Shown: positions 13,733 through 49,200 of the stretch, piece after piece
Layout of the letters: each line of letters starts with the position of its first letter
Position numbering within the stretch: position 1 is the stretch's first letter
DNA from: an uncultured Bacilli bacterium
Lineage (GTDB): Bacteria; Bacillota_I; Bacilli_A; RF39; UBA660
Length of the DNA: 64,000 nucleotides
Assembly: GCA_934090935.1 (NCBI GenBank)
Contig: CAKOKD010000003.1
Span: 92,604-156,603, forward strand
Reading direction: 5' to 3'
The notes under the pieces: generated by a model
Database searches by the model: none
The model's input: only the letters and a program-made list of their open reading frames with translations
Told to the model about the DNA's origin: nothing
Program-made: the position numbers and the translations under genes

Positions 13733-13741
13733 ATTACCTCC

Positions 13742-14106: not shown

Positions 14107-14109
14107 TCT

Positions 14110-16602: not shown

Positions 16603-16722
16603 ACTCGCGTATAAATGCAACTGACTACCTTTATTTCATATGAAATAATAAGGCTCTTGAGCTTTGCGTCACTACATTTCTATAGTTTTGCCCTAATCTA
16701 CTTTAATAAAATATAACATAAT

Positions 16723-17265: not shown

Positions 17266-17361
17266 AATTATACCTCTACCATGATTATATCATATCGGTA
17301 TAATAATTTATATTTTAAATTACTTATTTTTATGATAAAATTATTTTTAAGAGGGATATTT

Positions 17362-17751
17362 ATGGCTTATGTAAAATATAAAGAACTTACAAAATATTTT
17401 AATTTTAATAAAGAAATACCTATTGATGATTTACCTAAATATGTTTTAGATTATGTATCGGATACAGAAAATATTTTTAAAGCTTATAAAACTATTAGAG
17501 ATAAAGCGGTTTTTACTGATAAAAGAATGATTTTATTTGATGTATCAGTTTTAGGAACAGAAAAAAAGATTCATATCATTCCATATAAATCTATTTCAAC
17601 TGCTGCTATTCATTTTAAGCCAACTAAATCAAGTATTTTTATTTCATTTGATAGTGGCTATCAAATGAGATTAGACTTTGTTAATCAAAATGCAGAAAGT
17701 AAAACTGAACTTAGAAAACTATATTGTAAAATAATGGATAGTATTTTATAA
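17362..17751 (+). CDS. bacterial PH-domain protein (YokE-like)
   Basis: AGAGGGA RBS. MAYVKYKELTKYFNF...TDKRMILFD...IPYKSISTAAIH... This is the only clear plus-strand gene in the first 39 kb. Confidence 0.55.
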   Translation: MAYVKYKELTKYFNFNKEIPIDDLPKYVLDYVSDTENIFKAYKTIRDKAVFTDKRMILFDVSVLGTEKKIHIIPYKSISTAAIHFKPTKSSIFISFDSGYQMRLDFVNQNAESKTELRKLYCKIMDSIL

Positions 17752-17791
17752 CATATTAAAACGTTTAAGAACTAACTTAAACGTTTTTATT

Positions 17792-18970
17792 TTATACTAT
17801 TCTAAATGCTGGGGAAACACCTTTAGAGACGTTCGCATCGAAAGCGGAGTTGACGCCGCTGCTACTGACGCAAAGAAACCAGTAATTAACGCCAGAATAA
17901 GCCGAACGTAACCACCAATAGTCATTTCTTCCTTTATATTGTTTTATTGCTCCTGCATATTTATCAGCTGTTATTCCTTGATTTTTGTAATAATCTAATT
18001 GTCTTGACGTTCCTACTGATGTATCATGATCATCACCATTCCATACCTCTTGTGCATTTAATAAATATAATTTATCTTGTGTTTCAAAATTTGTTTCTCC
18101 AGAATTTTTTCCATGGCTTGATATTATTTTTGTTGAAGTTATTACACTTTGTAAGTCACTTGGAAGTGCATTATATATTGTTCCATTTATATATGTACGT
18201 AACTCTGAATTTTTCCATCCACCAACATTTGTTCTTGTACTGTTAAATGCTCGCATTGTTATTATATCTGCAAACTCAACTACAAATCCACATGCTGTTT
18301 CACTTGTTTCAGTTGTACATGCACTCATGTTTGCTATACGCACTGTATGTGTCCCTAGATTACCTAATTCTACTTCTTTAGTGTCTCCTACATTATATTT
18401 GCTTGTATTTCCATTCTTTACGTTTGATGCTATTGCTGACCAACTATCCTTTTGGAATTGAGTTAATTCTACACCAACTGTGTCCCTTTCTACTGCATTG
18501 AATTCTAACTTACATGTATATTCTTCACTTACTTCTTCTGTTGATGTTCTATCAAGTGTTACTGTTAATGTTCCGTTTAATGAAGTCTTTGCTTTTACAA
18601 CTGTGGCATTATTTTCAAGTTCATTCTTGATACTTGTATATTTTGCTTTTGTTCCGTCCTTTGGTACACATGTTACTTTAACCTCTGCATCATAGTTTGC
18701 TGAGTTATTTGTTACTTCGTAATTTAATATACTTGTTTGATTTAATGATTTTAATTCTGATGTTCCAAATGTTATTATCTTCTTTGTATCATCTACTACA
18801 GAACTATATACATCCTTTCCATCTATACTTGCAGCTGTGAAGATAACTGAGAAGTCATCTTGATCTTCGCTTACTTTAGCATTTCCGTTTATTATTAATG
18901 TTGTTGAGATCGCTGCAAATCCAATTGACATTAGTAATATTGCTACTATAAGCACACTCTTCTTTTTCAT
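17792..18970 (-). CDS. variable secreted protein paralog (N-module + SPAFRI-type C-domain)
   Basis: MKKKSVLIVAILLMSIGFAAISTTLIINGNAKV... C-terminus ends ...WWLRSAYS...GVSPAFRIV. Confidence 0.8.
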   Translation of the reverse strand: MKKKSVLIVAILLMSIGFAAISTTLIINGNAKVSEDQDDFSVIFTAASIDGKDVYSSVVDDTKKIITFGTSELKSLNQTSILNYEVTNNSANYDAEVKVTCVPKDGTKAKYTSIKNELENNATVVKAKTSLNGTLTVTLDRTSTEEVSEEYTCKLEFNAVERDTVGVELTQFQKDSWSAIASNVKNGNTSKYNVGDTKEVELGNLGTHTVRIANMSACTTETSETACGFVVEFADIITMRAFNSTRTNVGGWKNSELRTYINGTIYNALPSDLQSVITSTKIISSHGKNSGETNFETQDKLYLLNAQEVWNGDDHDTSVGTSRQLDYYKNQGITADKYAGAIKQYKGRNDYWWLRSAYSGVNYWFLCVSSSGVNSAFDANVSKGVSPAFRIV

Positions 18971-18997
18971 ATTCTACCTACTTTCCTTTACTTTTTT

Positions 18998-19025
18998 ATT
19001 TTATAATACCCCCCCCGATTGTCAA
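18998..19025 (-). promoter_or_regulatory. phase-variable-type promoter: -35 TTGACA (19020..19025), G8 tract (19009..19016), -10 TAAAAT (18998..19003); spacer 16
   Basis: The coding strand reads TTGACAatcGGGGGGGGtattaTAAAAT, then the leader with AAGGAAAG RBS and ATG at 18970. Confidence 0.6.
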
Positions 19026-19069
19026 ATTTTTCTGTTGAAAAGTTGTAAAGTTCGTGTTATATTTTATTT

Positions 19070-19151
19070 AGTGAGAAGCAAAGTTTCTTTAGGACGCGAT
19101 GCTTACCACCATTGGTGTTTGCACCTTTTTCAAAAGAAAAGGTGCTTTTTT
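19070..19151 (+). ncRNA. candidate antisense small RNA (type I antitoxin-like), promoter TTGAAA-17-TATATT at 19035..19063, intrinsic terminator 19121..19151
   Basis: Promoter, repeat motif A (GTGAGAAGCAAAGTTTCTTTAGGACGCGATGCTTACCAC), then GCACCTTTT-tcaaaag-AAAAGGTGC plus TTTTTT. No ORF. Convergent with the peptide ORF. Confidence 0.4.
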
Positions 19152-19156
19152 ATAGT

Positions 19157-19252
19157 TTATATTCCTTTTTTACAAAGTAGATATAATAATATAAAAATTA
19201 TAACGAATAAACTTACAATTAAAACATCTGTTTTAAATGATTTCTTAAACAT
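19157..19252 (-). CDS. 31-aa hydrophobic peptide (type I toxin-like): MFKKSFKTDVLIVSLFVIIFILLYLLCKKGI
   Basis: AAGGGAG RBS 9 nt before ATG. Single TM helix with charged ends. 5' UTR contains the reverse complement of motif B (19304..19339). Its 3' end overlaps the sRNA terminator. Confidence 0.4.
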   Translation of the reverse strand: MFKKSFKTDVLIVSLFVIIFILLYLLCKKGI

Positions 19253-19565
19253 TATAAATCACTCCCTTACTACAGCCTTTGCTGAAATTTACGTCCTACA
19301 TATAAGAAAGTGATAAGCATCTTTCCCTTGCTTCTCGAGTATTTATTTAAACATAATTTTTTTATATTTCAAAACTACAAAATTTTAAATTTGGAGTCTC
19401 AGATTTTTAATATCTGTAGCGATTTATATGCAAATCGTTAAAATCTGTCAAAAAAAAGCTACCAATTTTTAAGTTTAGTAGTTTTAACACTTTTTTTATA
19501 AAAAAAGAGTATTGAATAATCAATACCCTAAGCAAATTAAGTAAAATCTTAAATGCTTTAATATC

Positions 19566-19631
19566 GGAAGTATAAATTAACTATTTATCTACTTCCTGTT
19601 ATTATTATGTGCAATAATTTTAAAATATACA
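19566..19631. repeat. second copy of the conserved boundary element (GGAAGTA-loop-ACTTCC + TGTTATTATTATGTG + AAAATATACATTATTTTT) directly 3' of the mutM stop
   Basis: See 7682..7741. 21/21 identical core ACTTCCTGTTATTATTATGTG. Confidence 0.5.
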
Positions 19632-20441
19632 TTATTTTTGACAGTTTTCACAAAAATAAGTTCCACGTCCGCCTACTCTTATTTTCTTTATTTTATTTTT
19701 ACAGTTTGGACATATTTCTTTTGTATGAACTTTTAAATAATCTTGATAATGACCAGTTACTCCTAAAGATGAAGTATAGCTTCTTATTGTTGAACCTCCA
19801 AGTTCTGTTGCTTTTTCAATAATAACTTTTGAAGAAATACGTATTTTATCACATTCATCTAAAGTGATACTTGATCCACTTCTATTTGGATTTATGTTTG
19901 AGGCAAATAAAACTTCATCAACATATATGTTTCCTAAACCATTTATAATTGATTGATCTAAAAGAAGTGTCTTTATCGGTTTATTTTTATTATGAATAGA
20001 TTTGTAGATATATTCTTTTGTTAAAGAATCATTATCGGGTTCTATTCCTAATTTCTTTATTTCCTTTGAAGAATATACATCTTTAGTTTTTAAAACTCGC
20101 ATACGACCAAATTTTCTTGTATCATGATATCTTAAAGTGAATTCATCAAATATGAATATCACATGTTCATGTTTTTCTATTGGCTCTTCTGCTTTCTTTA
20201 TAAAATATTTTCCTTCCATACGTAGATGAGATATTAACGTATATTCTCCTAAATTAAATAGTAAATATTTTCCAAAGCTACTAACACTTTCAATCGTTTT
20301 TCCAATTAATATATTTTTAAATTCGTTTATATCTTGATCAATTATACGATCATATATAACATTTATATCCTTTATTTTATTTCCTGGTAGACTTTTATTT
20401 AAAGTTCTTGCTACTGTTCTTACTTCAGCGATTTCAGGCAT
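19632..20441 (-). CDS. mutM: formamidopyrimidine-DNA glycosylase (Fpg/MutM)
   Basis: N-terminal MPEIAEVRT (catalytic Pro2/Glu3). C-terminal zinc finger CPNCKNKIKKIRVGGRGTYFCENCQK. Confidence 0.9.
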   Translation of the reverse strand: MPEIAEVRTVARTLNKSLPGNKIKDINVIYDRIIDQDINEFKNILIGKTIESVSSFGKYLLFNLGEYTLISHLRMEGKYFIKKAEEPIEKHEHVIFIFDEFTLRYHDTRKFGRMRVLKTKDVYSSKEIKKLGIEPDNDSLTKEYIYKSIHNKNKPIKTLLLDQSIINGLGNIYVDEVLFASNINPNRSGSSITLDECDKIRISSKVIIEKATELGGSTIRSYTSSLGVTGHYQDYLKVHTKEICPNCKNKIKKIRVGGRGTYFCENCQK

Positions 20442-24785: not shown

Positions 24786-26153
24786 TTATTTTATTAATGT
24801 TATACGTGCATATCCATTTCCTTGTTTAGAACAGTTTTCGGTTGGTGTTTCGCTTGTGCATGTAGTTGATATGGTTTTTGTTGACTCTTCACTAGATTCA
24901 GTACAGTTGTAACAATACATCGATTTTTCGGATAAAAGTGAATTTCCTATGTATCCTGAACCTCCGCCAGCGGTATATCCAGCAACAGTTCCACCATAGA
25001 AACCTCCACCGCCTCCAGCCCAGGCCAAAGTGCCTCCACCGCCTTGACCAAATGTTCCAAAATTAGGATTATTTTTATTTGAAGACTCATTCACTGAATT
25101 ATATATTCTTTTGCCTCCATTTGTTTGGGTTCCTCCAAATCCTTGATAGGGTTTGCCTGAAGATGCTGCTATATAAGATCCCGAGTTTCCTCCAATATAA
25201 CCACCACCGGATCCAGAAACTATTTTATAATTATGGTCGTTATTACCACCACCGGCTCCTCCTCCAGAAACAATTAATACATCATCAATGTTATTATTAA
25301 AAGCATATAGTAAACCAGATTCTAATGCTATGTGTGTCGCACCACCTCCACTTGCATTATATGAATTAGTAGCCGAATTAAATGATGCAGATCCTCCTCC
25401 ATTATAGCCGCCTTCTTTGTTTACCCAAGTTAATTCTCCAAGGCCTTGTCCTCCAATATTAATATAAAACTTATTATTCTTTTCTAAATAAATTATTCCT
25501 TGAGAATACCCTCCATATCCACCAGAAATATTTACAGTTTTTCCACCTTCTGCTCCCCAAGTTTCAAGCTTATATGTTCCATTTACTGGAACTTCAAATG
25601 TTTGTTCATCTCCAGTATAATCAAATGTCCATTCTGTTGGTCCATCGTAACTAACACCTAATTCTGTTCTTTCTACGGCATTAAATTCTAATGAACATGT
25701 ATATTCTTCAGTTGTTTCTTCTATTGATTGTTTATCTAAGGTAACAGTTAATGTTCCATTTAATGTTTCGTTTGCTTTTACAACTGTTGCATTTCCTTCT
25801 AATTCATTTTTGATACTTGTATATTTTGCTGTTGTTCCGTCCTTTGGTACACATATAACACGCACTTCTGCATCATAGTTTGCTGAATTGTTTGTTACTT
25901 CATATGTTAGTACTGATGTATCATTTAGTTTTTTTAGGTCTTTACTTTTAAATGTTATTGTCTTCTTTGTATCATCTGTTACTTCATCATATACATCTAT
26001 TCCATCTAATGTTGCTGCTGTAAATATTACTGAATAATCATCTGTATTTTCATTTACTTTTGCATTTCCATTTATTATCAATGTTGTACTTACTGCTGCA
26101 AATCCAATTGACATCAATATTATTGCTACTACTAACATGCTCTTCTTTTTCAT
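24786..26153 (-). CDS. variable secreted protein paralog: conserved N-module + ALK/LTK-like glycine-rich (poly-Gly) domain + Cys-containing C-terminal tail
   Basis: N-module MKKKSMLVVAIILMSIGFAAVSTT... Then PTEWTFDYTGDEQTFEVPVNGTYKLETWGAEGG...GGYGGYSQG...GGGATHIALESGLL...LIVSGGGAGGG... Tail YCYNCTESSEESTKTISTTCTSETPTENCSKQGNGYARITLIK. Confidence 0.8.
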   Translation of the reverse strand: MKKKSMLVVAIILMSIGFAAVSTTLIINGNAKVNENTDDYSVIFTAATLDGIDVYDEVTDDTKKTITFKSKDLKKLNDTSVLTYEVTNNSANYDAEVRVICVPKDGTTAKYTSIKNELEGNATVVKANETLNGTLTVTLDKQSIEETTEEYTCSLEFNAVERTELGVSYDGPTEWTFDYTGDEQTFEVPVNGTYKLETWGAEGGKTVNISGGYGGYSQGIIYLEKNNKFYINIGGQGLGELTWVNKEGGYNGGGSASFNSATNSYNASGGGATHIALESGLLYAFNNNIDDVLIVSGGGAGGGNNDHNYKIVSGSGGGYIGGNSGSYIAASSGKPYQGFGGTQTNGGKRIYNSVNESSNKNNPNFGTFGQGGGGTLAWAGGGGGFYGGTVAGYTAGGGSGYIGNSLLSEKSMYCYNCTESSEESTKTISTTCTSETPTENCSKQGNGYARITLIK

Positions 26154-26180
26154 ATTCTACCTACTTTCCTTTACTTTTTT

Positions 26181-26208
26181 ATTTTATAATACCCCCCCCG
26201 ATTTTCAA
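26181..26208 (-). promoter_or_regulatory. phase-variable-type promoter: -35 TTGAAA (26203..26208), G8 (26192..26199), -10 TAAAAT (26181..26186); spacer 16
   Basis: Same element as the other copies. Followed upstream by an about 130-bp block shared with 31835..31960. Confidence 0.6.
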
Positions 26209-26340
26209 GGGCATTATCTTGTTTTACATTACTTTTGTCGTCTTTTTTATTTTGTTCTCCTATTGTTTCTTATATTATACAACATTTTTATTGTGCTTTG
26301 TATATTCATTTTTATTATGTGTAAAATATTTGTTTTAAAT

Positions 26341-26362
26341 AAAAAAAATCACAAAAGTGATT
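26341..26362 (-). terminator. rho-independent terminator of whiA (AATCACTTTTGTGATT + U8)
   Basis: Hairpin plus TTTTTTTT immediately after the whiA stop at 26365. Confidence 0.55.
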
Positions 26363-26364
26363 AT

Positions 26365-27276
26365 TTAAACATTATCCTTATTTTTATTTTTTTCAACTAA
26401 TTCTTTTATCTTTCTAAAATGATGATTAATTCCTGATTTGGTTATATTTATATCAGTTTCTAAAGAAATTATTTCAGCTAATTCACTCATTGTTGTTTCT
26501 GGATATTTAATTCTATAAGAAATGATTAATTTTGTTTTATCATCCAATAAAGATTCTAAATCATTTTCTTTTAAATAATTAATATTCTCAAGTTGTTCAT
26601 TGCAGGTTTTCATCGATTTTTCAACATTTGCTTGCTCACAGTTATTAAGTCTATTAACCATATTTTTATGATCTCTATAGATTCTTATATCCTCAAAATA
26701 GAACAAAGCATTTATCGCACCAATCAATTTTATGAAGTCGCTTATCTCCTCTGCTTGTTTTAAATAAACCATATATCCTTTTTCTCTTTTTAAAATTTTA
26801 CTAGAAAATCTAAAATGTTTAAGCAATTTGTCTATTGTCTTTGAATTCTTTTCATCACCAATTAAAAATTCAAGATGATATTTACTTTTAGCTGGATCGT
26901 TTATGGAACCTACTGCTAAAAAAGTTCCTTTAAGATATGATGCTTGTTCTTCATCAGTTAAATCATTTATTGATCTATATACACTTTCAATATCATTTTT
27001 TATAATATTAACCTTCTCAACAACATTCAAATAATATATTTTTTTGTTAAAAAACTTTTTTTGAGTACGCACGGTAAGATTGATATTTACTCCATAAATT
27101 CTTTTTAGTAAATTAAATATTCTTCTTGCTACGCTTGGATTTTCTGTTTTTACAGTTAAAATGTTATCCATTGCATCATTATATTTTAAAAATGCACATA
27201 GTTCACTTATAGACTCAAGTTTATTTGTTTCTATTTTAGTTATCTCATCTTTTATTTGAGTTGTAAATGATGCCAT
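26365..27276 (-). CDS. whiA: DNA-binding cell-division/sporulation regulator WhiA
   Basis: MASFTTQIKDEITKIE...LCAFLKYN (LAGLIDADG-like N-terminal domain). C-terminal HTH (MSELAEIISLETDINITKSGINHHFRKIKEL). Confidence 0.85.
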   Translation of the reverse strand: MASFTTQIKDEITKIETNKLESISELCAFLKYNDAMDNILTVKTENPSVARRIFNLLKRIYGVNINLTVRTQKKFFNKKIYYLNVVEKVNIIKNDIESVYRSINDLTDEEQASYLKGTFLAVGSINDPAKSKYHLEFLIGDEKNSKTIDKLLKHFRFSSKILKREKGYMVYLKQAEEISDFIKLIGAINALFYFEDIRIYRDHKNMVNRLNNCEQANVEKSMKTCNEQLENINYLKENDLESLLDDKTKLIISYRIKYPETTMSELAEIISLETDINITKSGINHHFRKIKELVEKNKNKDNV

Positions 27277-27291
27277 ATATATTTTCCTCTC

Positions 27292-27810
27292 TTAAGCTTT
27301 TATAAAATTCATGTTTAAAGTAAAACTATATATATATCCTTCAATATCAGAAGGATTTTTATTTTCTATTTTCAATTTTATTCTTTTTTGGCTTTGTTTA
27401 CTTATTATATCACCAATCTCTACCTTTTTTCCATCTTCCCATTCAATAACATAATCAATATTTTCACATAAATCTAAATCATCAGTTTTTTTATTTTTAG
27501 AATACATAAATTGATTTAGTTTAACATCAAATGTTCCATCATTTGCTACATCTATTGTATATTCATAGATATCTTCATTTTTTAAAGGAATTTCAAAGGA
27601 AATTGTTGTTTTACTTGTTTTGAAATCCAATCCTTGAACTGAGGCCGTATTATCTTTTAAGTTTATTGGATTTTCAAAATGTACATCATATTTTTCACTT
27701 TTAACAGTAGTTTTTTCTTTAAAATTATAGATATATACTCCATATCCAATAGATAATATGATTATCATAACTCCTAAAAATATAATTATTTTATTTAAAC
27801 CACTTTTCAT
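27292..27810 (-). CDS. hypothetical membrane-anchored protein
   Basis: N-terminal TM IIIFLGVMIIILSIGYGVYIY. 172 aa. Confidence 0.4.
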   Translation of the reverse strand: MKSGLNKIIIFLGVMIIILSIGYGVYIYNFKEKTTVKSEKYDVHFENPINLKDNTASVQGLDFKTSKTTISFEIPLKNEDIYEYTIDVANDGTFDVKLNQFMYSKNKKTDDLDLCENIDYVIEWEDGKKVEIGDIISKQSQKRIKLKIENKNPSDIEGYIYSFTLNMNFIKA

Positions 27811-27861
27811 AATTCACCTACTATTAACATAAATATGGAAATGCATATGCATTTCCATTAT

Positions 27862-29508
27862 CTAAAATAATTCTTTTAATTCGTGTTTTATATCCTTTAT
27901 AGTGTTAACTATATCTGGATTATATTTGTTTTCTTCAACCATAAGAATATTCTTCATCGCGATGTTGAAAGATTTGCTTAAAGTATATTGCAATATTTTT
28001 ACAGAAATATTTGTTATTTGAGCTTCTATTGGAATATTTTCTCCTGTTAAAGCATTTGGGTATCCAGCTCCATTATACATCTCAAAACTATAATTAATGA
28101 TATTGCTTGCAACTTTAAAATGTAAATTATCCTTTATATAGTTTTGAATTAAAATATGTCCATAGTCTATTTCTTCTTTAATGGAATCACTTGTTATAAC
28201 CGAATCCTTTGATATCGCGATTGATCCAACATTATATAATGCACATGATTTAACTATATTATCTATATATTTTGAATCTAAATTATATTTTGGATATTTA
28301 TTAGCAAGACTTACACTTACTAGTCTAACTATTTTCTTTAAAAGCATGGATTCTTTTGATGTCTCAATATTTGTAATAATTTTATTTATGATTAACTCCA
28401 ATGATTTATTATCATTTACAGTTTTTAATTCCTCATTTTGAACTTCAACTATATTTTGTAAACTATTACTAGATTGATATAGGTTAATAATTTTTCCAAA
28501 TCTTCTTCTAATATTTTCTGTATTAAATGGTTTTTCAAGCATATCTACTATGTCATATTGATATACTCTCTTTCTCGTCTCTCTTGTTTCATCCCCACTT
28601 ATTATGGCAACAGGAATTCTATTGAATAAGTCATTAGATTTCATAAATTCAAGAACGTCGAAGCCATCAGATTCAGGCATCACTAAATCAAGAAGCATAC
28701 CTACAATATTTTCATGATTTCCACTTACTGATGATGTTAAAACATTATCAGTAATAATGTTTATCGCTTCTAAACCATTTTTAGCAACTAATATCTCAAA
28801 ATCATTAGAGAATATTCTTTTTAACGAGTTTCTAATTATTGAAGAATCATCTACGATTAAAATTGATGGCTTTTTATAACTGCTCATCTCCGCCATTCTA
28901 TTTAAGATGGCTTTATTTAACTCAGGATGTTCTTCTGTTACTTTGTTGAATATCGAATTTATATAGTTTCTTGTTTGTTCACTTCCATTAGATGTGTCAA
29001 GAGCATGATTTATAAGATAGATTGCATCACTTATGCTCTTGTTTTCCTTATCCAATCTCTTCTTATAATCAGTAACTTCAGTTTCAAGTTTATCATTTTC
29101 ACTTTCAATATCAGTTAAACGATTGCTTATATCTTCACTCATCATAAATATAAGTTTTTTGCCTTCAAATGGCAAATAATTGATTATATTTACAAACCAT
29201 TTATACTCTCCAGTTTCACATAGTTTACGATATTTTATTTTTGTTTCATTGTTTCCCTTTTGACTTTCTTCTTCTAATTTATTAATTGATAAAGCATCAA
29301 AATAGTTTGATAAATCAGCAGAATTTACAAAACGTTTAGCTACATCTATGAAAGATGTATATGATGTAGTTTCTTTAATGATTAGATTATTGCTTATTGT
29401 AAAATCAAATTTGTATACTTTATCAGCTATTACATCGATTACATATATATTAGAGTAATTAGCATTTATAATTCTTGATACTTGTTCAATTAAACCTGAT
29501 TCGTTCAT
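27862..29508 (-). CDS. response-regulator receiver protein with N-terminal coiled-coil region and C-terminal degenerate HD-GYP-like domain
   Basis: REC domain (SILIVDDSSIIRNSLKRIF...LLDLVMPESDGFDVLEFM...). C-terminal ...YNGAGYPNALTGENIPIEAQI matches the GYP signature, but the upstream HHE metal motif is not evident. Confidence 0.5.
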   Translation of the reverse strand: MNESGLIEQVSRIINANYSNIYVIDVIADKVYKFDFTISNNLIIKETTSYTSFIDVAKRFVNSADLSNYFDALSINKLEEESQKGNNETKIKYRKLCETGEYKWFVNIINYLPFEGKKLIFMMSEDISNRLTDIESENDKLETEVTDYKKRLDKENKSISDAIYLINHALDTSNGSEQTRNYINSIFNKVTEEHPELNKAILNRMAEMSSYKKPSILIVDDSSIIRNSLKRIFSNDFEILVAKNGLEAINIITDNVLTSSVSGNHENIVGMLLDLVMPESDGFDVLEFMKSNDLFNRIPVAIISGDETRETRKRVYQYDIVDMLEKPFNTENIRRRFGKIINLYQSSNSLQNIVEVQNEELKTVNDNKSLELIINKIITNIETSKESMLLKKIVRLVSVSLANKYPKYNLDSKYIDNIVKSCALYNVGSIAISKDSVITSDSIKEEIDYGHILIQNYIKDNLHFKVASNIINYSFEMYNGAGYPNALTGENIPIEAQITNISVKILQYTLSKSFNIAMKNILMVEENKYNPDIVNTIKDIKHELKELF

Positions 29509-29564
29509 ATCACACTCACCTTACTATTGTAATTATAACATGTATATCTTTAGTTGTAAATTAA

Positions 29565-29594
29565 TGAAAAAGAAAAAAGTTCATTTGAACTTTT
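29565..29594 (-). terminator. rho-independent terminator of 29601..31772
   Basis: Minus-strand AAAAGTTCA-aa-TGAACTTTT plus TTTTC. Confidence 0.5.
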
Positions 29595-29600
29595 GAATTG

Positions 29601-31772
29601 TTATTTTATTAAAGTTATACGTGCGTATCCATTTCCTTGTTTTGAACAATTTGCTGTTGGCGTTGCACTTGTGCATGTAGTTGAAATTGTTTTTGTGGAC
29701 TCTTCAGTAGATGTAGCACAGTTATAACAATACATCACTTTTTCGGATAATTTTGAATTACCGATGTATCCTGAACCACCGGCTGCTGAAGAACCATTAT
29801 AATAAGCTCCGCCTCCACCATAAAGTCCACTTCCGCCTCCAGATGCGCTTTGAGTTTTCTCGTAATTTCCTCCATAACCGAATCCTCCATTAGAAATCGT
29901 TAAAGCTGTACTTCCATTAGTTCCATATTTGCTTTGTGAACCTCCAGTTGCTAAACTATCTTTCTCTGTTATTCCATTAGATCCTAAATAACCTCCACCA
30001 GATCCTCCTGAATGTGGATTGTATGGAGATTGGGGAGTTGTTAGATACTTTTTATAGTGCCAACCGGCTCCTCCGCCTCCACCAGAAACAATAAGAACAT
30101 TTTCAATATTATTGCTATAATTTTTTAACTGACCATCATCTATCAATAAGTTCTGAATGGAAGTTGCTCCGCCTCCAGCTCCCCAGACTGTTCCTCCATC
30201 TGATTTTGCGTTTCCTCCTCCATTATAGCCACCATCATATATTTTAACTGTAGAATAATCATCTCCATCAGTTCCTTTTCCTCCAACTATAATATATAAA
30301 ATATCATTTTTATTTAAAGTAACTACTCCTTTTGAATATCCACCATATCCACCAAGAGCCTCGCTTGTTTGAGCATAACCACCTTGTGCTCCCCATGTCT
30401 CTAACTTATATGTTCCAGATACTGAGGCAGTAAATGTTTGCTCGCCTCCTGTATAATCAAATGTCCATTCAGTTGGACTTTTATATGCTTTTTCTGTTCT
30501 AGATATTTTATTAACCTTTAACTTACAAGTAAAATTCTCCATATTGATATTCTCTAGTGTTATAGTCTTCCTATCTTGAGCTTCAATAGTTATTGGATCT
30601 GTTGATATTTTACTATCTTTATCATTTAAAACTAAAGTAATACGTGCATATCCGTTTCCTTGTTTTGAACAGTTTTCGGTTGGTGTTTCATTTGTACATG
30701 TTGTTGATATGGTTTTTGTTGACTCCTCACTAGATTCAGTACAGTTATAGCAATACATCACTTTTTCGGATAATTTTGAATTTCCAATGTAACTTGAACC
30801 ACCTCCAGCTCCTTGTAAAGTACCTGATGTACCGCCATATAAACCGCCTCCGCCACTAATTGTACCAGTATTTATATTTGTTCTTCCTGTACCAAATGAA
30901 CCATTATACTTGCCGCTTGTGTCAAGTGAATTATAGCTTTCTGTTTGAGTTCCACCTACTCCACAAACATAGCCTTTTTTACCATTATATGCATCATGAC
31001 AATCATAAGCGGAAACACCGATATAACCACCAGCATGTCCACCTTTTCCGTTCCAACCACCATGGTTAGAACAACCGCCTCCGCCTCCAGAGACAATAAT
31101 TAAATTTTCAAGACTATTTTTAAACGTAGTTAATAATCCAGAAGATGTTGCTATATGTGTTGCACCTCCGCCTGATGACACTCTTCCAGAGGTATCCGCG
31201 CTTCTTTTGGAATGACCTCCTCCATTATATCCTCCATTGACTAAATTTTTATCACTTGTTCCATTGTTAGCTTTGCCTGAACCGCCAACATTTATATATA
31301 AAACGTCATCCTTATTAAGTGTTGTTGTACCAGACGAATATCCACCGTAACCTCCAAAGTATGTTGAATCGATTACTCCACCTTGTGCTCCCCATGTCTC
31401 TAACTTATATGTAGCAGACATTGGTGCTGTAAATGTTTGTTCAGCACCTGTATAATCAAATGTCCATTCAGTTTTATCTGGTACTATATTATTTTCACAT
31501 TCAATATAACTTTCTGTGTCATATTCTGTTGAATCATTTACTATATCTATACTTATATTTCCATCTATATTGCTTAAAGTAAATTCATCTTTTGTTGCAT
31601 TTATTCCTGTATTTTCTGTATCATTTACTTTTAAATTATCTAAATATACCTTAAAATCACTTATGTTTTCTGATATTTTACCTAATCCATATATATTTAC
31701 TGTTGCATTATATGCTGCATACCCTATTATCATAAATAAAACAGTAACTAGCATTATTGTCGTCTTTTTCAT
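29601..31772 (-). CDS. large secreted protein with two ALK/LTK-like glycine-rich domains, each followed by the Cys-containing tail
   Basis: Signal MKKTTIMLVTVLFMIIGYAAYNATVNIYG. Two copies of TEWTFDYTGxEQTFTAxxSxTYKLETWGAQGG...GGYGGYS...GGGAT...SGGGGG...YCYNCxxSxEESTKTISTTCT..PT.NCSKQGNGYARITL. Confidence 0.75.
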   Translation of the reverse strand: MKKTTIMLVTVLFMIIGYAAYNATVNIYGLGKISENISDFKVYLDNLKVNDTENTGINATKDEFTLSNIDGNISIDIVNDSTEYDTESYIECENNIVPDKTEWTFDYTGAEQTFTAPMSATYKLETWGAQGGVIDSTYFGGYGGYSSGTTTLNKDDVLYINVGGSGKANNGTSDKNLVNGGYNGGGHSKRSADTSGRVSSGGGATHIATSSGLLTTFKNSLENLIIVSGGGGGCSNHGGWNGKGGHAGGYIGVSAYDCHDAYNGKKGYVCGVGGTQTESYNSLDTSGKYNGSFGTGRTNINTGTISGGGGLYGGTSGTLQGAGGGSSYIGNSKLSEKVMYCYNCTESSEESTKTISTTCTNETPTENCSKQGNGYARITLVLNDKDSKISTDPITIEAQDRKTITLENINMENFTCKLKVNKISRTEKAYKSPTEWTFDYTGGEQTFTASVSGTYKLETWGAQGGYAQTSEALGGYGGYSKGVVTLNKNDILYIIVGGKGTDGDDYSTVKIYDGGYNGGGNAKSDGGTVWGAGGGATSIQNLLIDDGQLKNYSNNIENVLIVSGGGGGAGWHYKKYLTTPQSPYNPHSGGSGGGYLGSNGITEKDSLATGGSQSKYGTNGSTALTISNGGFGYGGNYEKTQSASGGGSGLYGGGGAYYNGSSAAGGSGYIGNSKLSEKVMYCYNCATSTEESTKTISTTCTSATPTANCSKQGNGYARITLIK

Positions 31773-31799
31773 TTCTACACCTTCGCATCTTACTTTTTT

Positions 31800-31827
31800 A
31801 TTTTATAATACCCCCCCCGATTTTCAA
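31800..31827 (-). promoter_or_regulatory. phase-variable-type promoter: -35 TTGAAA (31822..31827), G8 (31811..31818), -10 TAAAAT (31800..31805); spacer 16
   Basis: Identical architecture to the 26181..26208 copy. Confidence 0.6.
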
Positions 31828-31998
31828 GGGCATTGTCTTGTTTTACATAACTTTTGTCGTCTGTTTTATTTTGCAGTTGTATTATATCTTATATTATACA
31901 ACATTTTCGTTGTATTTTGCATATTCATTTTTATTATGCGTAAAGTGTATTTATTTATTATCATTGTAATTTATATTGAAAAATGTTATATTTATTTT

Positions 31999-32089
31999 AG
32001 TGAGAAGCAGAAGTTTTCTTTTGAGGCTGATGCTTACCACGTGTTATGTGTACGCATCCTTATTCAGTAGAATAAAGATGCTTTTTTTT
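31999..32089 (+). ncRNA. candidate antisense small RNA copy 2 (promoter TTGTAA-17-TATATT at 31964..31992; terminator 32054..32089)
   Basis: Motif A (GTGAGAAGCAGAAGTTTTCTTTTGAGGCTGATGCTTACCAC), then GCATCCTTATTC-agta-GAATAAAGATGC plus T8. Convergent with the 27-aa peptide ORF, whose stop lies in the U-tract. Confidence 0.4.
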
Positions 32090-32171
32090 ATTGCCATAAT
32101 AATTTTAAAATTATTACTAGCAATATAAAAACGATTAGATAAAGTAATCTTATATGATTATCTTTTTTCAT
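32088..32171 (-). CDS. 27-aa hydrophobic peptide (type I toxin-like): MKKDNHIRLLYLIVFILLVIILKLLWQ
   Basis: AGAGGAAG RBS 7 nt before ATG. Near-consensus promoter TTGACA(32289..32294)-16-TATAAT(32267..32272) fires directly into the reverse complement of motif B (32229..32261). Confidence 0.45.
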   Translation of the reverse strand: MKKDNHIRLLYLIVFILLVIILKLLWQ

Positions 32172-32344
32172 CGTATCACTTCCTCTCGTACTCCTTAACC
32201 AAAACCCTGAATATTTAGCCTCTAGTTTGGAAGTGATAAGCACCTTTTTCTGCTTCTCGAGTTTGTATTATATATGCTAAATTTTTCTTGTCAATAAATC
32301 CGACAAATGTCGACAAAATTAGAACCTAAAAAAAATAAAATATA

Positions 32345-32369
32345 TAAAAAAAATCGCATTCTTGCGATT
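32345..32369 (-). terminator. rho-independent terminator of 32368..34497 (stop codon lies inside the hairpin)
   Basis: Minus-strand AATCGCAAGAATGCGATT plus TTTTTTTT. Confidence 0.5.
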
Positions 32370-34497
32370 ATTTTATTAAGGTAATACGTGCGTATCCGTT
32401 TCCTTGTTTTGAACAGTTTGCTGTTGGAGTTTCATTTGTACATGTAGTTGATATAGTTTTTGTTGCCTCTTCACTAGACTCGGTACATTTATAACAATAC
32501 ATTGATTTTTCACTTAATTGTGAATTTCCTATATATCCTGAGCCTCCACCAGCTCCAGCATAATGTGAAAAACCGCCTCCATAAAAGCCAGCACCTCCTC
32601 CGGCTCCAGAAGTTCCTGTATCATATCCACCAATTCCAAAGACTCCATAATTAGTTGTTCTTATACCATGATCTGTACTAGAGTTATATCCATTTCCATA
32701 AACTACAGTTCCACCACTTGTTTGACTTCCTCCAAAGCCTATCCAATAGTAATCACCACTGTTGGTTCCATCGTTACCTTTGTATCCACCACCGGCTCCT
32801 CCAGATCCACTATAAGATGAAGAGTCATTTGTTCGATATCCAAAAGCTGCTCCTCCGCCTCCGGAAACCATTAAGATGGAATCAAGATCGTTTTGTAGAT
32901 TTTCTAGTCTTTCACTTTTTAGTAAAATATAACTAGCATCTCCTCCATCACTACTTCCTTTATAAACTTCATTTCCTTGACCTCCACCAAAGACTTTGTT
33001 TTGTCCACCAACAGTTATATATAAATTATCTTTTTTGTTTAGATAAATTTCTCCAATAGAATATCCTCCATATCCTCCGATATAGGAAACTCCCGCCTTT
33101 GAAGTTGCATTACCTCCTTGTGCTCCCCATGTCTCTAACTTATATGTTCCACTTGTTGGTGCTGTAAATGTTTGCTCTAATCCAGTATAATCAAATGTCC
33201 ATTCAGTTGAGCCTGTATATATTTCTTCTTTTGTCGTTCTTGATATCTTGTTAACTTTTAATTTACAAGTGAAATTCTCCATATTAATATTCTCTAATGT
33301 TATTGACTTCTTATCTTGTGCTTCTATTGTTACCACTTCTGTTGAAGTAATTTCTTTTGAATTACTTGAAACTAGAGTAATACGAGCGTATCCATTGCCT
33401 TGCTTTGCACAATTTTCAGTTGCTGTTGATGAAGTACATGTAGTTGAAATGGTTTTTGTTGACTCTTCATCTGACTCAGCACAGTTATAGCAATACATTG
33501 ATTTTTCACTTAATTGTGAATTACCAATATATCCTGAGCCACCTCCAGCGCCTCCATGGAAACTACCTCCGCCTCCATAAAAGCCAGCACCTCCGCCACA
33601 AGCAACATAATTTGCCACAGTTGATCCAAATCCTTTACCAAATGTACCAATACATGCTCGATATCCGCTTGATGTTCCTTTTATCCAGACCATATCTCCT
33701 CCAGTTGTTTGACTACCACCTGTTCCATAACCATATCCATATCCGTTAGTATGGTTAACTGACTCTCCGTTGTTTCCTTTTATTCCTCCGGCAGATCCTC
33801 CGTTTCCATCTCCATAACCTGAGCCTCTGTTTGCTGCTCCGCCTCCACCTCCAGAAACAATCAATATGTTTTCTTTTTTAGTTTCAAAAGTGGATAATAA
33901 TCCCGATAAATCTGCTATATGTGTTGCTCCGCCGCCAGCTTTTCCGTAATTGCCATTATTAACGTACCCACCGCCATTATATCCTCCGGTAAGAGCAACT
34001 CCTTGACCACCTGCATTTATATATAGAATTTTTCCACCTTCTAAGGTCATTTTACCAGAAGAATATCCGCCATAGCCTTCAAAATAATTTGATGAATAAG
34101 ACCCACCTTGTGCTCCCCATGTTTCAAGCTTGTATGTTCCACTTATTGGTGCTGTAAATGTTTGCTCCGATCCTGTGTAATCAAATGTCCATTCAGTTTT
34201 CTCCGGTGTTACATTGCTTTCACACTCAAGATAACTTTCTGTGTCATATTCTGTTGAATCATTTACTATATCTATACTTATGTTTCCATTTATATTGCTT
34301 AAAGTAAATTCGTCTTTTGCATCATTTATTCCTGTACTTTCCGTATCATTTACTTTTAAATTATCTAAATATACTTTAAAGTCACTTATGTTTTCTTCTA
34401 GTTTACCCAATCCATATATATTCACTGTTGCATTATAAGCAGAAAAACCTATCACCATAAACAATATTGTTAAAAGCAAAATGATTCCTTTCTTCAT
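32368..34497 (-). CDS. large secreted protein with two ALK/LTK-like glycine-rich domains (tandem paralog of 29601..31772)
   Basis: MKKGIILLLTILFMVIGFSAYNATVNIYG... Same two-domain organisation and the same C-terminal tail. No poly-G promoter upstream. Confidence 0.75.
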   Translation of the reverse strand: MKKGIILLLTILFMVIGFSAYNATVNIYGLGKLEENISDFKVYLDNLKVNDTESTGINDAKDEFTLSNINGNISIDIVNDSTEYDTESYLECESNVTPEKTEWTFDYTGSEQTFTAPISGTYKLETWGAQGGSYSSNYFEGYGGYSSGKMTLEGGKILYINAGGQGVALTGGYNGGGYVNNGNYGKAGGGATHIADLSGLLSTFETKKENILIVSGGGGGAANRGSGYGDGNGGSAGGIKGNNGESVNHTNGYGYGYGTGGSQTTGGDMVWIKGTSSGYRACIGTFGKGFGSTVANYVACGGGAGFYGGGGSFHGGAGGGSGYIGNSQLSEKSMYCYNCAESDEESTKTISTTCTSSTATENCAKQGNGYARITLVSSNSKEITSTEVVTIEAQDKKSITLENINMENFTCKLKVNKISRTTKEEIYTGSTEWTFDYTGLEQTFTAPTSGTYKLETWGAQGGNATSKAGVSYIGGYGGYSIGEIYLNKKDNLYITVGGQNKVFGGGQGNEVYKGSSDGGDASYILLKSERLENLQNDLDSILMVSGGGGAAFGYRTNDSSSYSGSGGAGGGYKGNDGTNSGDYYWIGFGGSQTSGGTVVYGNGYNSSTDHGIRTTNYGVFGIGGYDTGTSGAGGGAGFYGGGFSHYAGAGGGSGYIGNSQLSEKSMYCYKCTESSEEATKTISTTCTNETPTANCSKQGNGYARITLIK

Positions 34498-34596
34498 TAT
34501 TCATCACCATATTCTATTATACTTTTATTATATAATATCTTCATTTTTCTTTCAATAAGTTAAAAGCATAAAAAAAACACGTTTTTTATAAACGCG

Positions 34597-38232: not shown

Positions 38233-38547
38233 TCACATATGTTTTCTTGATGAAACCATTTTATCAGGAATATAATCTTGAACAAATGAAAGTGCTTGAT
38301 CAGCTGAATTAACAACAGCAGATGAAGTATGTCCAAGCCTATCTTGATATTGAACAGTGACGTGATCAGTGGCACTTAAACCAGATTGCTTTGATATAAA
38401 ATCAAATGTTAAACTACAATCTTCTGAGTAAACGATAACTCTTTTACACCCTGGAGCTAAATCTTGTTCTCTACAACTGGATAATCCATTTGTAAGTCCT
38501 TCATATATTTCATTTAAATTTGTGTTAGTTTCAACACTCATATTCAT
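38233..38547 (-). CDS. small soluble hypothetical protein (104 aa), compositionally foreign (about 40% GC), driven by a poly-G promoter copy
   Basis: MNMSVETNTNLNEIYEGLTNGLSSCREQDLAPGCKRVIVYSEDC... No signal peptide. GAGAGG RBS. Confidence 0.45.
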   Translation of the reverse strand: MNMSVETNTNLNEIYEGLTNGLSSCREQDLAPGCKRVIVYSEDCSLTFDFISKQSGLSATDHVTVQYQDRLGHTSSAVVNSADQALSFVQDYIPDKMVSSRKHM

Positions 38548-38573: not shown

Positions 38574-38601
38574 ATTTTATAATACCCCCCCCGATTTTCA
38601 A
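38574..38601 (-). promoter_or_regulatory. phase-variable-type promoter copy: -35 TTGAAA (38596..38601), G8 (38585..38592), -10 TAAAAT (38574..38579)
   Basis: Same element. Here it is upstream of a non-paralog cargo gene. Confidence 0.55.
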
Positions 38602-45784: not shown

Positions 45785-46224
45785 AAACTTTTCCTCCTTT
45801 TAATTAACAAAATAACTATAAATAATATAACAATGGTAACTATGGGTATAAATATATAACAATATGTATGATTATTTTCTTTATTATATATTACTACTTC
45901 TTGAAAAGATTCATCTCCATAGCTTAAATATGTTTCTTTTAACTTGCCTTTATAGGTTATCTTTCCTATCTCAAACCTTCCTTCTTTAAACGAATCTGTA
46001 TAGAGAAGGATTGAATTAGAATCATAATCTCCTTGAAAATCATTTGATGGTTCAAAATTTATAACGTCTCCTTTTATATGATATTCAATTGCTGATACTA
46101 AGAAGTTTGAATTAGCATACATCGTACATGTGTGTTCACTTTTTTTATCCTCGCATTCATAGTCAATATTCTCTGCAAGAACAAGCGTTGGAAGAAGTGA
46201 TAACATAACAATTATCATTTTCAT
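45781..46224 (-). CDS. small membrane-anchored protein with a mini cohesin-like module
   Basis: Signal peptide. LLYTDSFKEGRFEIGKITYKGK parallels LYTDTMKTGTFSIGTITLK of the neighbour. C-terminal TM plus RRKSL. Confidence 0.4.
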   Translation of the reverse strand: MKMIIVMLSLLPTLVLAENIDYECEDKKSEHTCTMYANSNFLVSAIEYHIKGDVINFEPSNDFQGDYDSNSILLYTDSFKEGRFEIGKITYKGKLKETYLSYGDESFQEVVIYNKENNHTYCYIFIPIVTIVILFIVILLIKRRKSL

Positions 46225-49200
46225 TATATACCACTTATCCTATTCCTTACAAAACTATATAGTTTTGATACATCAGCAACTTTTATTTCATTTTGTTTTC
46301 TTATATGAGCCGATGCTAAACTGTATTTATCAAGTTCAGTTTTGCCTCTTACATAATTGTATAACATGGATACATCAAAGACATTGATTTTGCCATCCTT
46401 GTTTAAGTCTCCAATTATTACAATTGCATATGTTTCTTCACCGTTTTGTAAATACATACCTGTACCGATTTCATTTACTTTTGATGTGATATCTGAATGA
46501 TTTTTATCAAGAATCTTATAGTCAGTTACAACTCCATTTAAATTCGATAAGAACTCAGATTTAGTTAAACTTTTTTTATTCATGCTTAAGACATTTATTA
46601 TTGTTTCATCATAATTTATGCTATAAACATTTGATGTTAATCTTTGTCTAGCAGTTATTTTTATTTTTTTAACAACGTCATTATGAGTGAATACAAGTTC
46701 ACATGAACCTATACCATTTACTTTAATTCTTCCATCATCAAGCACTTTAACAATCGCTTCATCAGTTGAAGTAACAGTTACTGAATTATCAGTATGATTA
46801 CTTGGATTTAAAACGTAATTATAAGGTTTGAATTCCCCATAAAATAAAGTTAAATTATCATCAACTTCAACATTATCGATAATCACCTTTAATTCATCAA
46901 CTTTGATATATTTTTTTACAGGTGAACTTATACGCGTATATGGTAAACCATTTATACATAGATAGAAATCAAGATTTCCTTCTTTTAAAGCATTAGTTTT
47001 AAAATCTATTTTTTTGAATGTATTTCCATATAAATCTTCAGAAGTATATGATACTTTTATTTCATCAACTAAAGTAAGTGAATCGAATACTTTAATCGAA
47101 TAAACATCAGTATCCACATCATCATAAGTAGTCATAAAATAATATGTTCCCTTTGCTCCATCGATATCATATATCGAGTTATCTCCATAGTTTTTAACCG
47201 GTTCAACTTTAGAATATCCGCTTAAACTAACATTATAGTAGTTTTTCTCGATTATGAATGAAAGCATATTAGAAGCGGAATAAGATCCATCACTTTCATA
47301 GTAATATAGTTGTACACGATACTCCCCAACTCTTGCTTTAAATGGAATGATATTGATATAGTATTTTCCTTCATCCGCAATTTTATTTTCTAGATTAAAG
47401 GCATTGGTAACATTATCCTCTTTGATATCACTATAAAGAATATTATCTTCAGCGTCATAGATTCTTGCTTTGATGTTATTTAAATCATTTCCTGTTAAGA
47501 CAGTACTTACATCAAATGTATATCCCATATTTTCTTGGTCTGCATAAACAATAGAATTTAATGAAATCATATTTGATAGAATTATGCTCTTATATGAAGA
47601 ATTCATTTCATAATCAACATTTTTTGTAATGCTCTTCAGTGGATTTTCTTGATAAGTTAAACTTATGACATAATTATCAGCTTGGATAGAAGAATTCTTA
47701 TCATATTTTATTCTAATTTGATTGTCATATTTCTCAACTGTGAATTTATCAGTAACATCAACATTTTTAGATGAAGTTATCTTAACTAACATGTCAGATG
47801 CAAATAGCTCATAATCACTTTTTATAAATATTGTGAAAACACTGTCGACATTATTATGAAGTCTTCCATCCATTGCATCAGTCATAATCTCTGTTTTTTC
47901 TATTTCAAAATCTTTTACATAATTACCTATGTCAAATGTTTGAGTTTTTTCTACTCTATATCCATCCATGTCATAGTATGTTACTAATCGATAAGTTCCT
48001 GGTTCTACCGAGTTTTTAGCATATTCAACATTTAAAATAAATGATGTTAAAGAAGTACTTGAATTAGTTGAATAGATTTTAAAGTTCGAAGTAACATCAT
48101 TATCCTCAGCATCAAATATTTTAGAGTTTTTACTGAATACATGCTTGTTAGAATCTCTGTCGATATGAGATGAACTTATTTGAATATCAGGAATGTCTAC
48201 TGTGCTTATATCATACTCTATTTTTCCACCATTTTCTGCATTTGGATAAAGTGGATTTGGATCAGTTTTATATGAATCAAAATAGAAATTGAAATAAGTT
48301 TTATTTACTGTAAACGTTAAGGAATCTTTTATCGTTTTTTTGCTATTTGAATAGCTAACTTCAACCATATATTTTCCTGATTCAATTTGTTTTAGAGTTG
48401 GATCGTAATTTATCTCTAGATTATGACTTGCTACAAATTCACTTCTGTTGAAATTGAAATATGAAGTGTAGTCTCTTAAACCATCCTCAGATAAAACTTT
48501 AATTTGAATATCTTCATTACTATAATCTATTCCATATATACGAACAGGTATATATATTTTACCAACCTTGTTTGTAAACAATCCATCAGATACTTGATTA
48601 TTCGATATTTTAGAGTATATAAGTGTATTATCTTTATCAAAAATGATATCTGCATATTCATCTTGAACATCAAAAGTATATGTTTTATAATCCGAACTAT
48701 TATAATATAAAGTTAATGCATATTTTCCTTCTTCTAATTTTAAATTCGAATCCAGATTATCTTTAAGAGTTAACTTCAATTTTTGATTATCTTTAGTTGT
48801 ATTTAAATCGTTAAAACGATTATTATAGTTTGTTCCACTTGTTGGATCACATACACCATTTATGCAGTCTTTATTGATAACCCAAGATGCATTTTTTTCA
48901 TATGGAGATGAAAGAGTTACATCGATTGTTACATCATTTAAATTATTGTAGAATCCTGGTACATCAATGTAATTTCCATTATCATTATATTTGGATGTGA
49001 TAACTACGTCGCTTATCTTCCACTCGAATAGAGACTTCAATGTCTTTCCGTAATCGGTTAATTCATATTCAACATTTCTTGTAGCATAGGAAGCAAGAAG
49101 TGTATAAGTTCCTTTCATATCAACCGTATTTTGAATAAGCTCAATAATCAATTTTCCTTTGAAATCAGGACCTGTACTTAAATCCCAGTTATCTCTTATC

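Follow-up and report, generated by a model that had tools for sequence, protein, structure and literature searches.

Three paralogous proteins with ALK/LTK-type glycine-rich domains, probably displayed at the surface and phase-variable, in a gut Bacilli bacterium

The glycine-rich domain (GRD) of ALK and LTK is best known from these two human receptor kinases, in which it binds cytokines and contains a rare polyglycine-II helix bundle. Homopolymers in promoter spacers underlie phase variation of Mycoplasma hyorhinis vlp (poly-A) and of Neisseria meningitidis porA (poly-G) and opc (poly-C), and recombination of cassettes between conserved flanks is known from Mycoplasma genitalium MgPa/MgPar and Neisseria pilE/pilS. 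The polyglycine-II helix lattice of ALK comprises 14 helices (PMC12227593); the ALK features used for comparison here were drawn from that paper, from PMC9608196 and from PDB hit descriptions. We analysed a 64,000-nucleotide stretch of DNA (the window) from an uncultured Bacilli bacterium of the human gut, whose relatives include 'Firmicutes bacterium CAG:582' and Hadza and HGM metagenome-assembled genomes. We think it probable that three of its genes encode paralogous exported surface proteins with ALK-type ligand-binding heads, which are modulated by G tracts and exchange their cores.

The three genes, all on the minus strand, lie exactly where the initial annotation placed them, at 29601..31772 (723 aa), 32368..34497 (709 aa) and 24786..26153 (455 aa). 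The 709-aa protein consists of a leader, a short Ig-like N-module, GRD module 1 (33373..34197, residues 101-375, bounded by TEWTFDY and GYARITL), a beta-hairpin linker and GRD module 2 (32377..33207, residues 431-707), and a terminator-like hairpin lies 3' of its gene (32352..32369, minus strand). The 723-aa protein has the same architecture, with GRD modules at 30633..31472 (residues 101-380) and 29610..30473 (residues 434-721), while the 455-aa protein joins a leader and full Ig-like N-module (25638..26153, residues 1-172) to one GRD module (24795..25637, residues 173-453). DNA and protein repeats agree that the module is duplicated in the two larger proteins and single in the third: two DNA repeat families of 199 and 135 nt occur in five copies each, and at the protein level the five modules measure 275-288 aa, contain 21-26% glycine and share 56-61% pairwise identity. 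The tandem pair does hold four domains, as had been proposed, within a window total of five over three genes; the label "giant" does not fit, 709-723 aa being modest beside relatives that reach 7,663 aa and carry up to 11 module copies per protein.

The motifs first read from the sequence fared unevenly. TEWTFDYTGxEQTFTAP..TYKLETWGAQGG, GGYGGYS and (I/L)(I/M)VSGGG(G/A) recur in all five modules, GGYNGGG is missing from one and GGGATHIA..SGLL from two. Each module also ends in the tail (M)YCY(N/K)C...TKTISTTCT......NC(S/A)KQGNGYARITL, whose four cysteines are spaced C-x2-C-x14-C-x8-C. In module 1 of the 723-aa protein this tail lies at 30669..30752 (C341, C344, C359 and C368) and is modelled by AF2 with a pLDDT of 95-97; the equivalent tails are at 29646..29729, 33409..33492, 32413..32496 and 24831..24914, all on the minus strand. 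Across 90 homologs each of the four cysteines reaches at least 90% conservation, in module 1 as in module 2. The tail is present in 68 of 148 distant representatives, and some retain the CxxC pair alone.

By sequence the heads are genuine ALK/LTK-type glycine-rich domains. Pfam PF12810 (ALK_LTK_GRD) matches the three proteins with E-values of 5e-74 to 2e-34 and scores of 249.7, 191.9 and 119.9 bits against a gathering threshold of 24.5 bits, which bears out the initial assignment. The matches span the whole model (profile positions 7-243, 6-243 and 7-243 of 243) and fall into two stretches in both large proteins, the best being residues 452-722 of the 723-aa protein (positions 7-243) and 448-708 of the 709-aa protein, which as a whole matches with E=2.3e-56. 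PF12810 was the sole Pfam domain above threshold, and an Adeno_knob match (E=0.004, sub-threshold) was rejected as noise. Against NCBIfam, these proteins and their neighbours matched no model and gave sub-threshold noise only. ALK itself was reached by a 90-sequence profile but not by phmmer, for which the single 455-aa sequence gave no match to PDB sequences at E<=1. The predicted structure likewise agrees with the early reading: its fold is equivalent to solved ALK/LTK GRDs (PDB 7LS0, 7LRZ, 7NX3, 7LIR, 7NX0), with a TNF-like sandwich and a glycine-rich subdomain. The sandwich would combine N-terminal strands (TEWTFDY..TYKLETW) with C-terminal Cys strands (..YCYNC..TIST..YARITL), with the glycine block between them. 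In the AF2 model the glycine segments have pLDDT above 90, fall outside the DSSP helix and strand classes and superpose on ALK, and this block is expected to form a polyglycine-II helix lattice. The domain is part of a large family that databases have already catalogued; they record its fold and membership, and nothing in that record is changed here.

Every homolog of the GRD proteins is unnamed or "hypothetical", and the best match among GTDB representatives is 58% identical. Close homologs comprise 54 cassette types, in which hypervariable loops separate the glycine motifs of a conserved scaffold. Because phage tail-fibre tips combine a conserved scaffold with hypervariable loops in the same way, the head is most likely a ligand-binding module, whose specificity or antigenicity would differ by cassette. 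Related strains carry the same GRD core at differing loci or positions, and from these metagenome assemblies we infer exchange of module cores between loci of different strains; the conserved module ends would permit it by homologous recombination. Chimeric assembly is an unlikely source of this pattern, since DNA identity between the module ends of paralogs is only 80-84%. More tentatively, the family may serve programmed surface diversification in uncultured gut Bacilli, in which a promoter, leader and stalk cassette switched by G slippage would carry heads of several kinds (GRD, C-type-lectin-like DUF6273 and a Cys-rich head) from a pool that also supplies the receptor-binding tips of gut phages, and GRD cores would be exchanged between loci through conserved, selection-maintained ends.

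Upstream of the 723-aa gene, a promoter scan identified TTGAAA-ATC-G8-TATTA-TAAAAT (31800..31827, minus strand), with a 16-nt spacer and the G tract (31811..31818) between the -35 and -10 hexamers. An identical cassette precedes the 455-aa gene (26181..26208, minus strand; G8 at 26192..26199). The 709-aa gene would instead be driven from a near-consensus site, TTGAAA-17-TATAAT (34527..34555, minus strand), that carries no G tract, and the tract is also absent from this position in the syntenic strain L001. With Rfam, the region between the 709-aa and 723-aa genes gave no match, and the window as a whole gave only a tRNA and a c-di-GMP-I riboswitch; therefore no known RNA element lies 5' of the GRD genes. 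Slipped-strand changes in the tract probably modulate expression of the 723-aa and 455-aa proteins, G8 setting a spacer of 16 nt and G9 one of 17 nt, and could turn the genes on and off.

Is the tract a switch or a fixture? It could be a fixed promoter element, a selected spacer or regulator site, in which case the family would vary in sequence but not in phase; we regard this as unlikely. G8 occurs in 51 of 72 distinct promoter copies (~70% across species), among them most paralogs of several species, and at all three orthologous sites in L001. Tracts range from G6 to G9 across copies, but one contributing assembly is possibly error-prone: VOFC01 supplies five of the seven G6 copies and also shows poly-A length differences, so that its G6 tracts may be homopolymer sequencing errors. 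Against a fixed element, runs of eight or nine G are intrinsically prone to slippage and are otherwise almost absent from the genome (0.49 expected), and paralogs within the window mix G7 and G8. In strain L093 the orthologous tract is G9 where the window has G8, with the 723-aa protein and flanks identical, and the tract is the point at which one assembly breaks. Interrupted forms (G5TG3 and G4AG5) also exist, as expected from decay of a mutable tract.

Each protein would carry its single GRD head or pair of heads on an Ig-like stalk, preceded by a Sec-type leader or a signal anchor. The N-terminal segment, either leader or anchor, is hydrophobic and includes IGFA|A, a plausible site for signal peptidase; the first ~37 residues are of low confidence in the AF2 model. 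As first noted, the leaders of the tandem pair diverge (IGYAAYNATVNIYG and IGFSAYNATVNIYG versus IGFAAVSTTLIINGNAKV). The pair does carry the family N-module, as had also been suggested, in a form shortened to ~100 aa from ~170 aa. The stalk is an Ig-like (PapD/MSP-type) beta-sandwich. Pfam detected no LPXTG, LysM, SLH or WxL anchor in the GRD proteins, and therefore retention at the surface would fall to the N-terminal hydrophobic segment alone; the proteins end in ..GYARITLIK, and an LPXTG-like motif is absent from the 148 distant representatives as well. The inter-module linker of the 723-aa protein (30474..30632, minus strand, residues 381-433) is predicted to be a long beta-hairpin (AF2 strands E388-423), whose end strand NFTCKLKVNKISRTE is similar to EEYTCSLEFNAVERTE, the final strand of the full N-module. 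The hhalign match to the C-terminal half of the N-module is weak and covers this last strand only (15 columns, P=3.8e-4, probability 36%), and the BLASTP match stems for the most part from the TEWTFDY motif. Two invariant cysteines would flank GRD1, which may interrupt the sandwich of the N-module or may belong to a duplicated hairpin-plus-GRD unit. A further, unlikely reading makes the proteins subunits of a fibre or matrix. After cleavage of the leader, the strongly conserved N-terminus of the mature protein (AVSTTLIINGNAKVSEN / AYNATVNIYGLGKISEN) would serve as donor strand and link the Ig-like stalks into a polymer, as in TasA or archaeal bundling pili, so that GRD, DUF6273 and Cys-rich heads would be borne along a filament and not on single molecules anchored in the membrane.

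Origin from phage genes, as remnants of prophage or tailocin receptor-binding proteins, is highly improbable: every protein begins with a basic and hydrophobic Sec-type leader common to a cellular multigene family, the neighbours are housekeeping genes in synteny conserved across strains, genes for tails, baseplates, chaperones or lysis are absent from the vicinity of the GRD loci, and the phage homolog has no leader, stalk or four-Cys tail. That the heads are unfolded low-complexity glycine linkers or wall filler, and the Pfam match a compositional artefact, is effectively refuted, whatever weight is given to their glycine content, to the empty phmmer search and to old Pfam notes that warned of compositional matches for the PF12810 family.

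Read as surface proteins with exchangeable binding heads, these genes put the ALK-type GRD to use as a head that can be swapped within a multigene family of gut-bacterial proteins, a family that is probably phase-variable, and close relatives of the domain by sequence occupy the receptor-binding position of phage tails. This suggests a function for thousands of unnamed bacterial PF12810 proteins, as recognition modules built from a glycine stem and hypervariable loops. The 54 cassette types form a natural variant set for how far a polyglycine-II lattice tolerates loop variation, and the conserved G-tract promoter is a possible marker for phase-variable genes in a poorly known lineage. Were the family indeed a programmed diversification system, the ALK-type GRD would be a general evolvable recognition scaffold of bacteria, phages and animals, made of a polyglycine-II stem and hypervariable loops.

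Compared with ALK and LTK, the window proteins are bacterial and exported, with an Ig-like stalk and a GRD duplicated in tandem. They lack an EGF-like module, MAM/LDLa domains, a transmembrane kinase and an ALKAL-type ligand, and so are not ALK/LTK receptors; they stop at ..ARITLIK, right after the GRD, where ALK and LTK continue to the kinase, and their four-Cys tail segment has no cysteines in the ALK alignment. Unlike sortase- or wall-anchored Gram-positive adhesins, they have neither LPXTG nor a wall-binding domain. With the receptor-binding tips of phage tail fibres, which include the glycine-rich tips of cyanophage Pam3 gp24 (7YPX), Salmonella phage S16 gp38 (6F45), Bxb1 gp33 (9D93) and C. 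difficile phage phiCDHM11 gp21, they share the TNF-like plus glycine-rich fold and the hypervariable loops between glycine motifs on a conserved scaffold. They differ in having a Sec-type leader and Ig-like domain in place of a fibre or baseplate attachment domain, and in lacking an alpha-helical docking or trimerisation domain, a fibre chaperone gene and a phage context. As in MgPa/MgPar and pilE/pilS, conserved segments surround variable cores, whereas no silent promoterless archive was seen, all copies looking like complete genes, and exchange is deduced from the comparison of strains, not from within a clone. In contrast to vlp, porA and opc, variability lies in folded domains (GRD, DUF6273 and the Cys-rich head) in place of short tandem repeats, the promoter of one tandem gene is tract-free, and switching is here a prediction from sequence. 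The window cassettes share with these systems a homopolymer that separates the -35 and -10 hexamers, variable coding regions placed behind a conserved cassette of promoter, 5' UTR and leader, and several paralogs per genome whose tract length varies by copy and strain.

Three genes on the minus strand of the window, the strand that carries nearly all genes here (GC ~28%), encode five copies of a glycine-rich domain module (GRD; Pfam PF12810, ALK_LTK_GRD): two each in a tandem pair of 723 aa (29601..31772) and 709 aa (32368..34497), and one in a protein of 455 aa (24786..26153). The ORF coordinates of the initial annotation were exact for all three, and its repeated module proved real, appearing in the DNA as two repeat families of five in-register copies each. 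Bounded by TEWTFDY and GYARITL, the protein modules span 275-288 aa with 21-26% glycine and contain all the motifs quoted for them, including a four-Cys tail (C-x2-C-x14-C-x8-C); their pairwise identity is 56-61%, and no pair stands out as closer. The sole descriptive error was the label "giant" for the tandem pair: a library-wide search with one module returned 4,745 cluster representatives at E<=1e-3 (630 at <=1e-30), among them related proteins of 4,000-7,663 aa, with module copies reaching 11.

How might expression of these genes be controlled? The 723-aa and 455-aa genes have an identical upstream cassette, CCCTTGAAAATC-G8-TATTATAAAAT, in which TTGAAA and TAAAAT are 16 nt apart, G8 run included, and a conserved RBS follows; the 709-aa gene has, in the window and in the syntenic strain, a TTGAAA-17-TATAAT promoter without a G tract. 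Six tracts (five G8, one G7) lie in cassettes of the form TTGA[A/C]AATC-Gn-TATTATAAAAT, all on the coding strand, here minus, and ~40 nt 5' of start codons: 7515-7521, 19009-19016, 26192-26199 (G8, 455-aa gene), 31811-31818 (G8, 723-aa gene), 38585-38592 (G8, a 104-aa ORF) and 57305-57312. Where 0.49 G7 matches would be expected, the window has 11. Related MAGs and metagenomes also conserve the cassette, its tract ranging from G6 to G9, and it has the anatomy of promoter-spacer phase variation, switching in a population being putative. An alternative that we consider unlikely is that the tract is a fixed promoter element; the 72 distinct copies collected from genomes and metagenomes include 51 G8, 5 G7, 7 G6 (five of them in a single, possibly error-prone assembly in which poly-A tracts differ too), 1 G9 and a few interrupted tracts. 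The most direct evidence of length change comes from L093, a locus encoding an identical 723-aa protein with 99.55% identity over 5.8 kb, where G9 stands against the window's G8 between identical flanks; one other contig breaks off exactly at the G tract.

Further copies of the cassette occur in other settings. In the Hadza MAG CAKOPW the G8 cassette comes back every 2-3 kb (L003, L004, L006, L010 and L014), three times in L006 (4018-9221), so this MAG has tandem arrays of family genes longer than the window's. The 104-aa ORF (38233-38547, minus; MNMSVETNTNLNEIYEGL...), which lacks a leader and a Pfam match, is conserved in L001 and L002, promoter included; here the gene behind the putative phase-variable promoter is not an exported one, and may encode a regulator. 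The spacer between the tandem GRD genes holds a 27-aa hydrophobic ORF (32088-32171, minus; MKKDNHIRLLYLIVFILLVIILKLLWQ), conserved in L093, with a promoter-like site at 32294..32267 (TTGACA-16-TATAAT, a perfect 12/12), a leader of ~90 nt and a hairpin 3' of the ORF. Rfam gave no match for it, and its product resembles a small membrane peptide, perhaps a type I toxin.

A comparison of 90 close homologs shows conserved TNF-like strands and a conserved Cys tail (0.3-1.0 bit per column); between the glycine motifs lie hypervariable segments (2.7-3.2 bit) with indels. Recent conversion is not the source of the conserved ends, since 26-34% of identical-residue codons differ synonymously. In L001, the syntenic locus of a related strain (10001-19668, against window 24786-34497; flanks 98% identical), the first gene (712 aa) has a second module that shares 97% identity with the second module of the window's 723-aa protein and only 55% with its positional counterpart; in the single-module gene (460 aa) the core is of that same type (89% identity), and the second module of the second gene (702 aa) has a novel core, <=55% identical to every window module. 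Clustering 206 cores gave 54 types; 23 of these have several members, and 6 of the 23 occupy more than one position. Module cores appear to move between loci. L093 has no 709-aa gene upstream of the 723-aa gene; Peptidase_M16 and Band_7 genes (1-2395) replace it, and the 99.55% identity runs onward from the 723-aa gene. Homology with the window (32379 onward) begins right around the upstream gene's stop, reflecting either structural variation or rearrangement at a common terminator region.

In the tandem pair the Ig-like base that follows the leader is shortened to ~100 aa, and a beta-hairpin linker joins the two GRDs, its final strand (NFTCKLKVNKISRTE) resembling that of the full base. This could reflect insertion of the first GRD into the sandwich or, alternatively, duplication of a hairpin-plus-GRD unit. 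Pfam searches of the three proteins and inspection of 148 distant representatives found no wall-anchoring motif. The proteins could conceivably be fibre subunits whose conserved N-terminal segment serves as donor strand, an arrangement that we regard as quite doubtful. A 172-aa protein (27292-27810, minus), whose gene adjoins WhiA in every syntenic locus, combines a transmembrane segment at its N-terminus with a beta-rich domain and has no Pfam match; it contains a motif, YEYTIDVANDGTFDVKL, similar to the LTYEVTNNSANYDAEV strand of that base, the family N-module.

Relatives were found only in uncultured human-gut Bacilli MAGs (Hadza CAKOPW, CAKOKS and CAKOJJ; HGM10793; Firmicutes bacterium CAG:582), with several loci per related genome (at least six in CAKOPW) and no functional names in the source records. 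The neighbours are housekeeping genes, coding for PolA, Fpg, WhiA, LeuRS, FtsW/RodA, signal peptidase I, a rhomboid protease and a response regulator whose HD-GYP domain appears degenerate, in synteny conserved in other assemblies. The modules match phage families strongly (phrog_1589, 2e-71); no phage genes are present around the GRD genes, and leader, stalk and genomic context make an origin as phage remnants very improbable. The response regulator (27862-29508, minus), between the GRD genes and syntenic in L001, L093 and L094, fuses a receiver to a partial HD_5; it retains GAGYP, apparently has YN in place of the HD dyad, and may be tied to c-di-GMP signalling. A c-di-GMP-I riboswitch (16613-16702, minus; 59.6 bits) precedes the gene (14110-16269, minus) for a 719-aa surface protein with Ig-like and Listeria-Bacteroides repeat domains, so a second kind of surface protein here has a different switch. 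A 2,195-aa ORF (46224-52811, minus), with only faint or sub-threshold Pfam matches (WxLIP host-binding, dockerin, Big_2), is putatively another large, uncharacterised surface protein; the protein encoded after it, of 469 aa, contains a cadherin-like domain.

The three proteins match PF12810 full-length in the Pfam search, in two stretches per large protein, at 249.7, 191.9 and 119.9 bits against a threshold of 24.5. NCBIfam models did not match the three proteins, nor did a single-sequence search match PDB entries. A profile of 90 family members matches C. elegans SCD-2 (1.2e-9), human ALK (5e-8) and LTK (5e-3) among PDB entries, the alignment spanning the start motif xQxWxVPxTGxYxxExxGAxGG and the GGGGxYIGxN motif. 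The ALK/LTK-like interpretation of the initial annotation therefore holds, and a compositional artefact is refuted. The GRD of ALK is a polyglycine-II bundle of 14 helices (PMC12227593), and from homology and superposition we infer such a lattice in the window modules. The four tail cysteines, at least 90% conserved among close homologs, occur in 68 of 148 distant representatives and are missing from ALK and the phage homolog; the tail is a subfamily feature, and its cysteines may form disulfides or a metal site.

The GRD is the ligand-binding domain of ALK. By this analogy, and from the phage family matches and the systems that follow, the GRD proteins are best read as exported, with a recognition module exposed at the surface. 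In the cyanophage Pam3 fibre, a TNF-like plus glycine-rich domain, likened to C. elegans ALK, mediates host recognition by way of its distal tip, which is hypervariable and sits on a conserved glycine stem (PMC9608196). C. difficile phage phiCDHM11 encodes, after the tail-fibre gene and before the lysis genes, a full-length PF12810 protein, gp21; it starts TEWNFDYTGAEQ and ends GYAKITL, without the Cys tail. Sibling genes, all minus, bear DUF6273 heads instead (6289-7476, 17792-18970, 56058-57263 and, directly downstream of the first and without its own G tract, 4940-6193; E 1e-15 to 1e-23 across the four). Among PHROGs these heads match one with the annotation Hoc-like head decoration; DUF6273 forms C-type-lectin-like heads on gut-phage receptor-binding proteins (PMC10743442). 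Candidate roles are adhesion, immune or phage evasion, or a combination.

PF12810 membership is already in databases, precomputed for every homolog. Switching by promoter tracts and exchange of cassettes are mechanisms described before. The novelty lies in the instance: four-Cys-tailed ALK-type GRD heads that an uncultured gut lineage carries on an expression cassette both conserved and probably phase-variable, together with the head modules common to this protein family and phage receptor-binding proteins.
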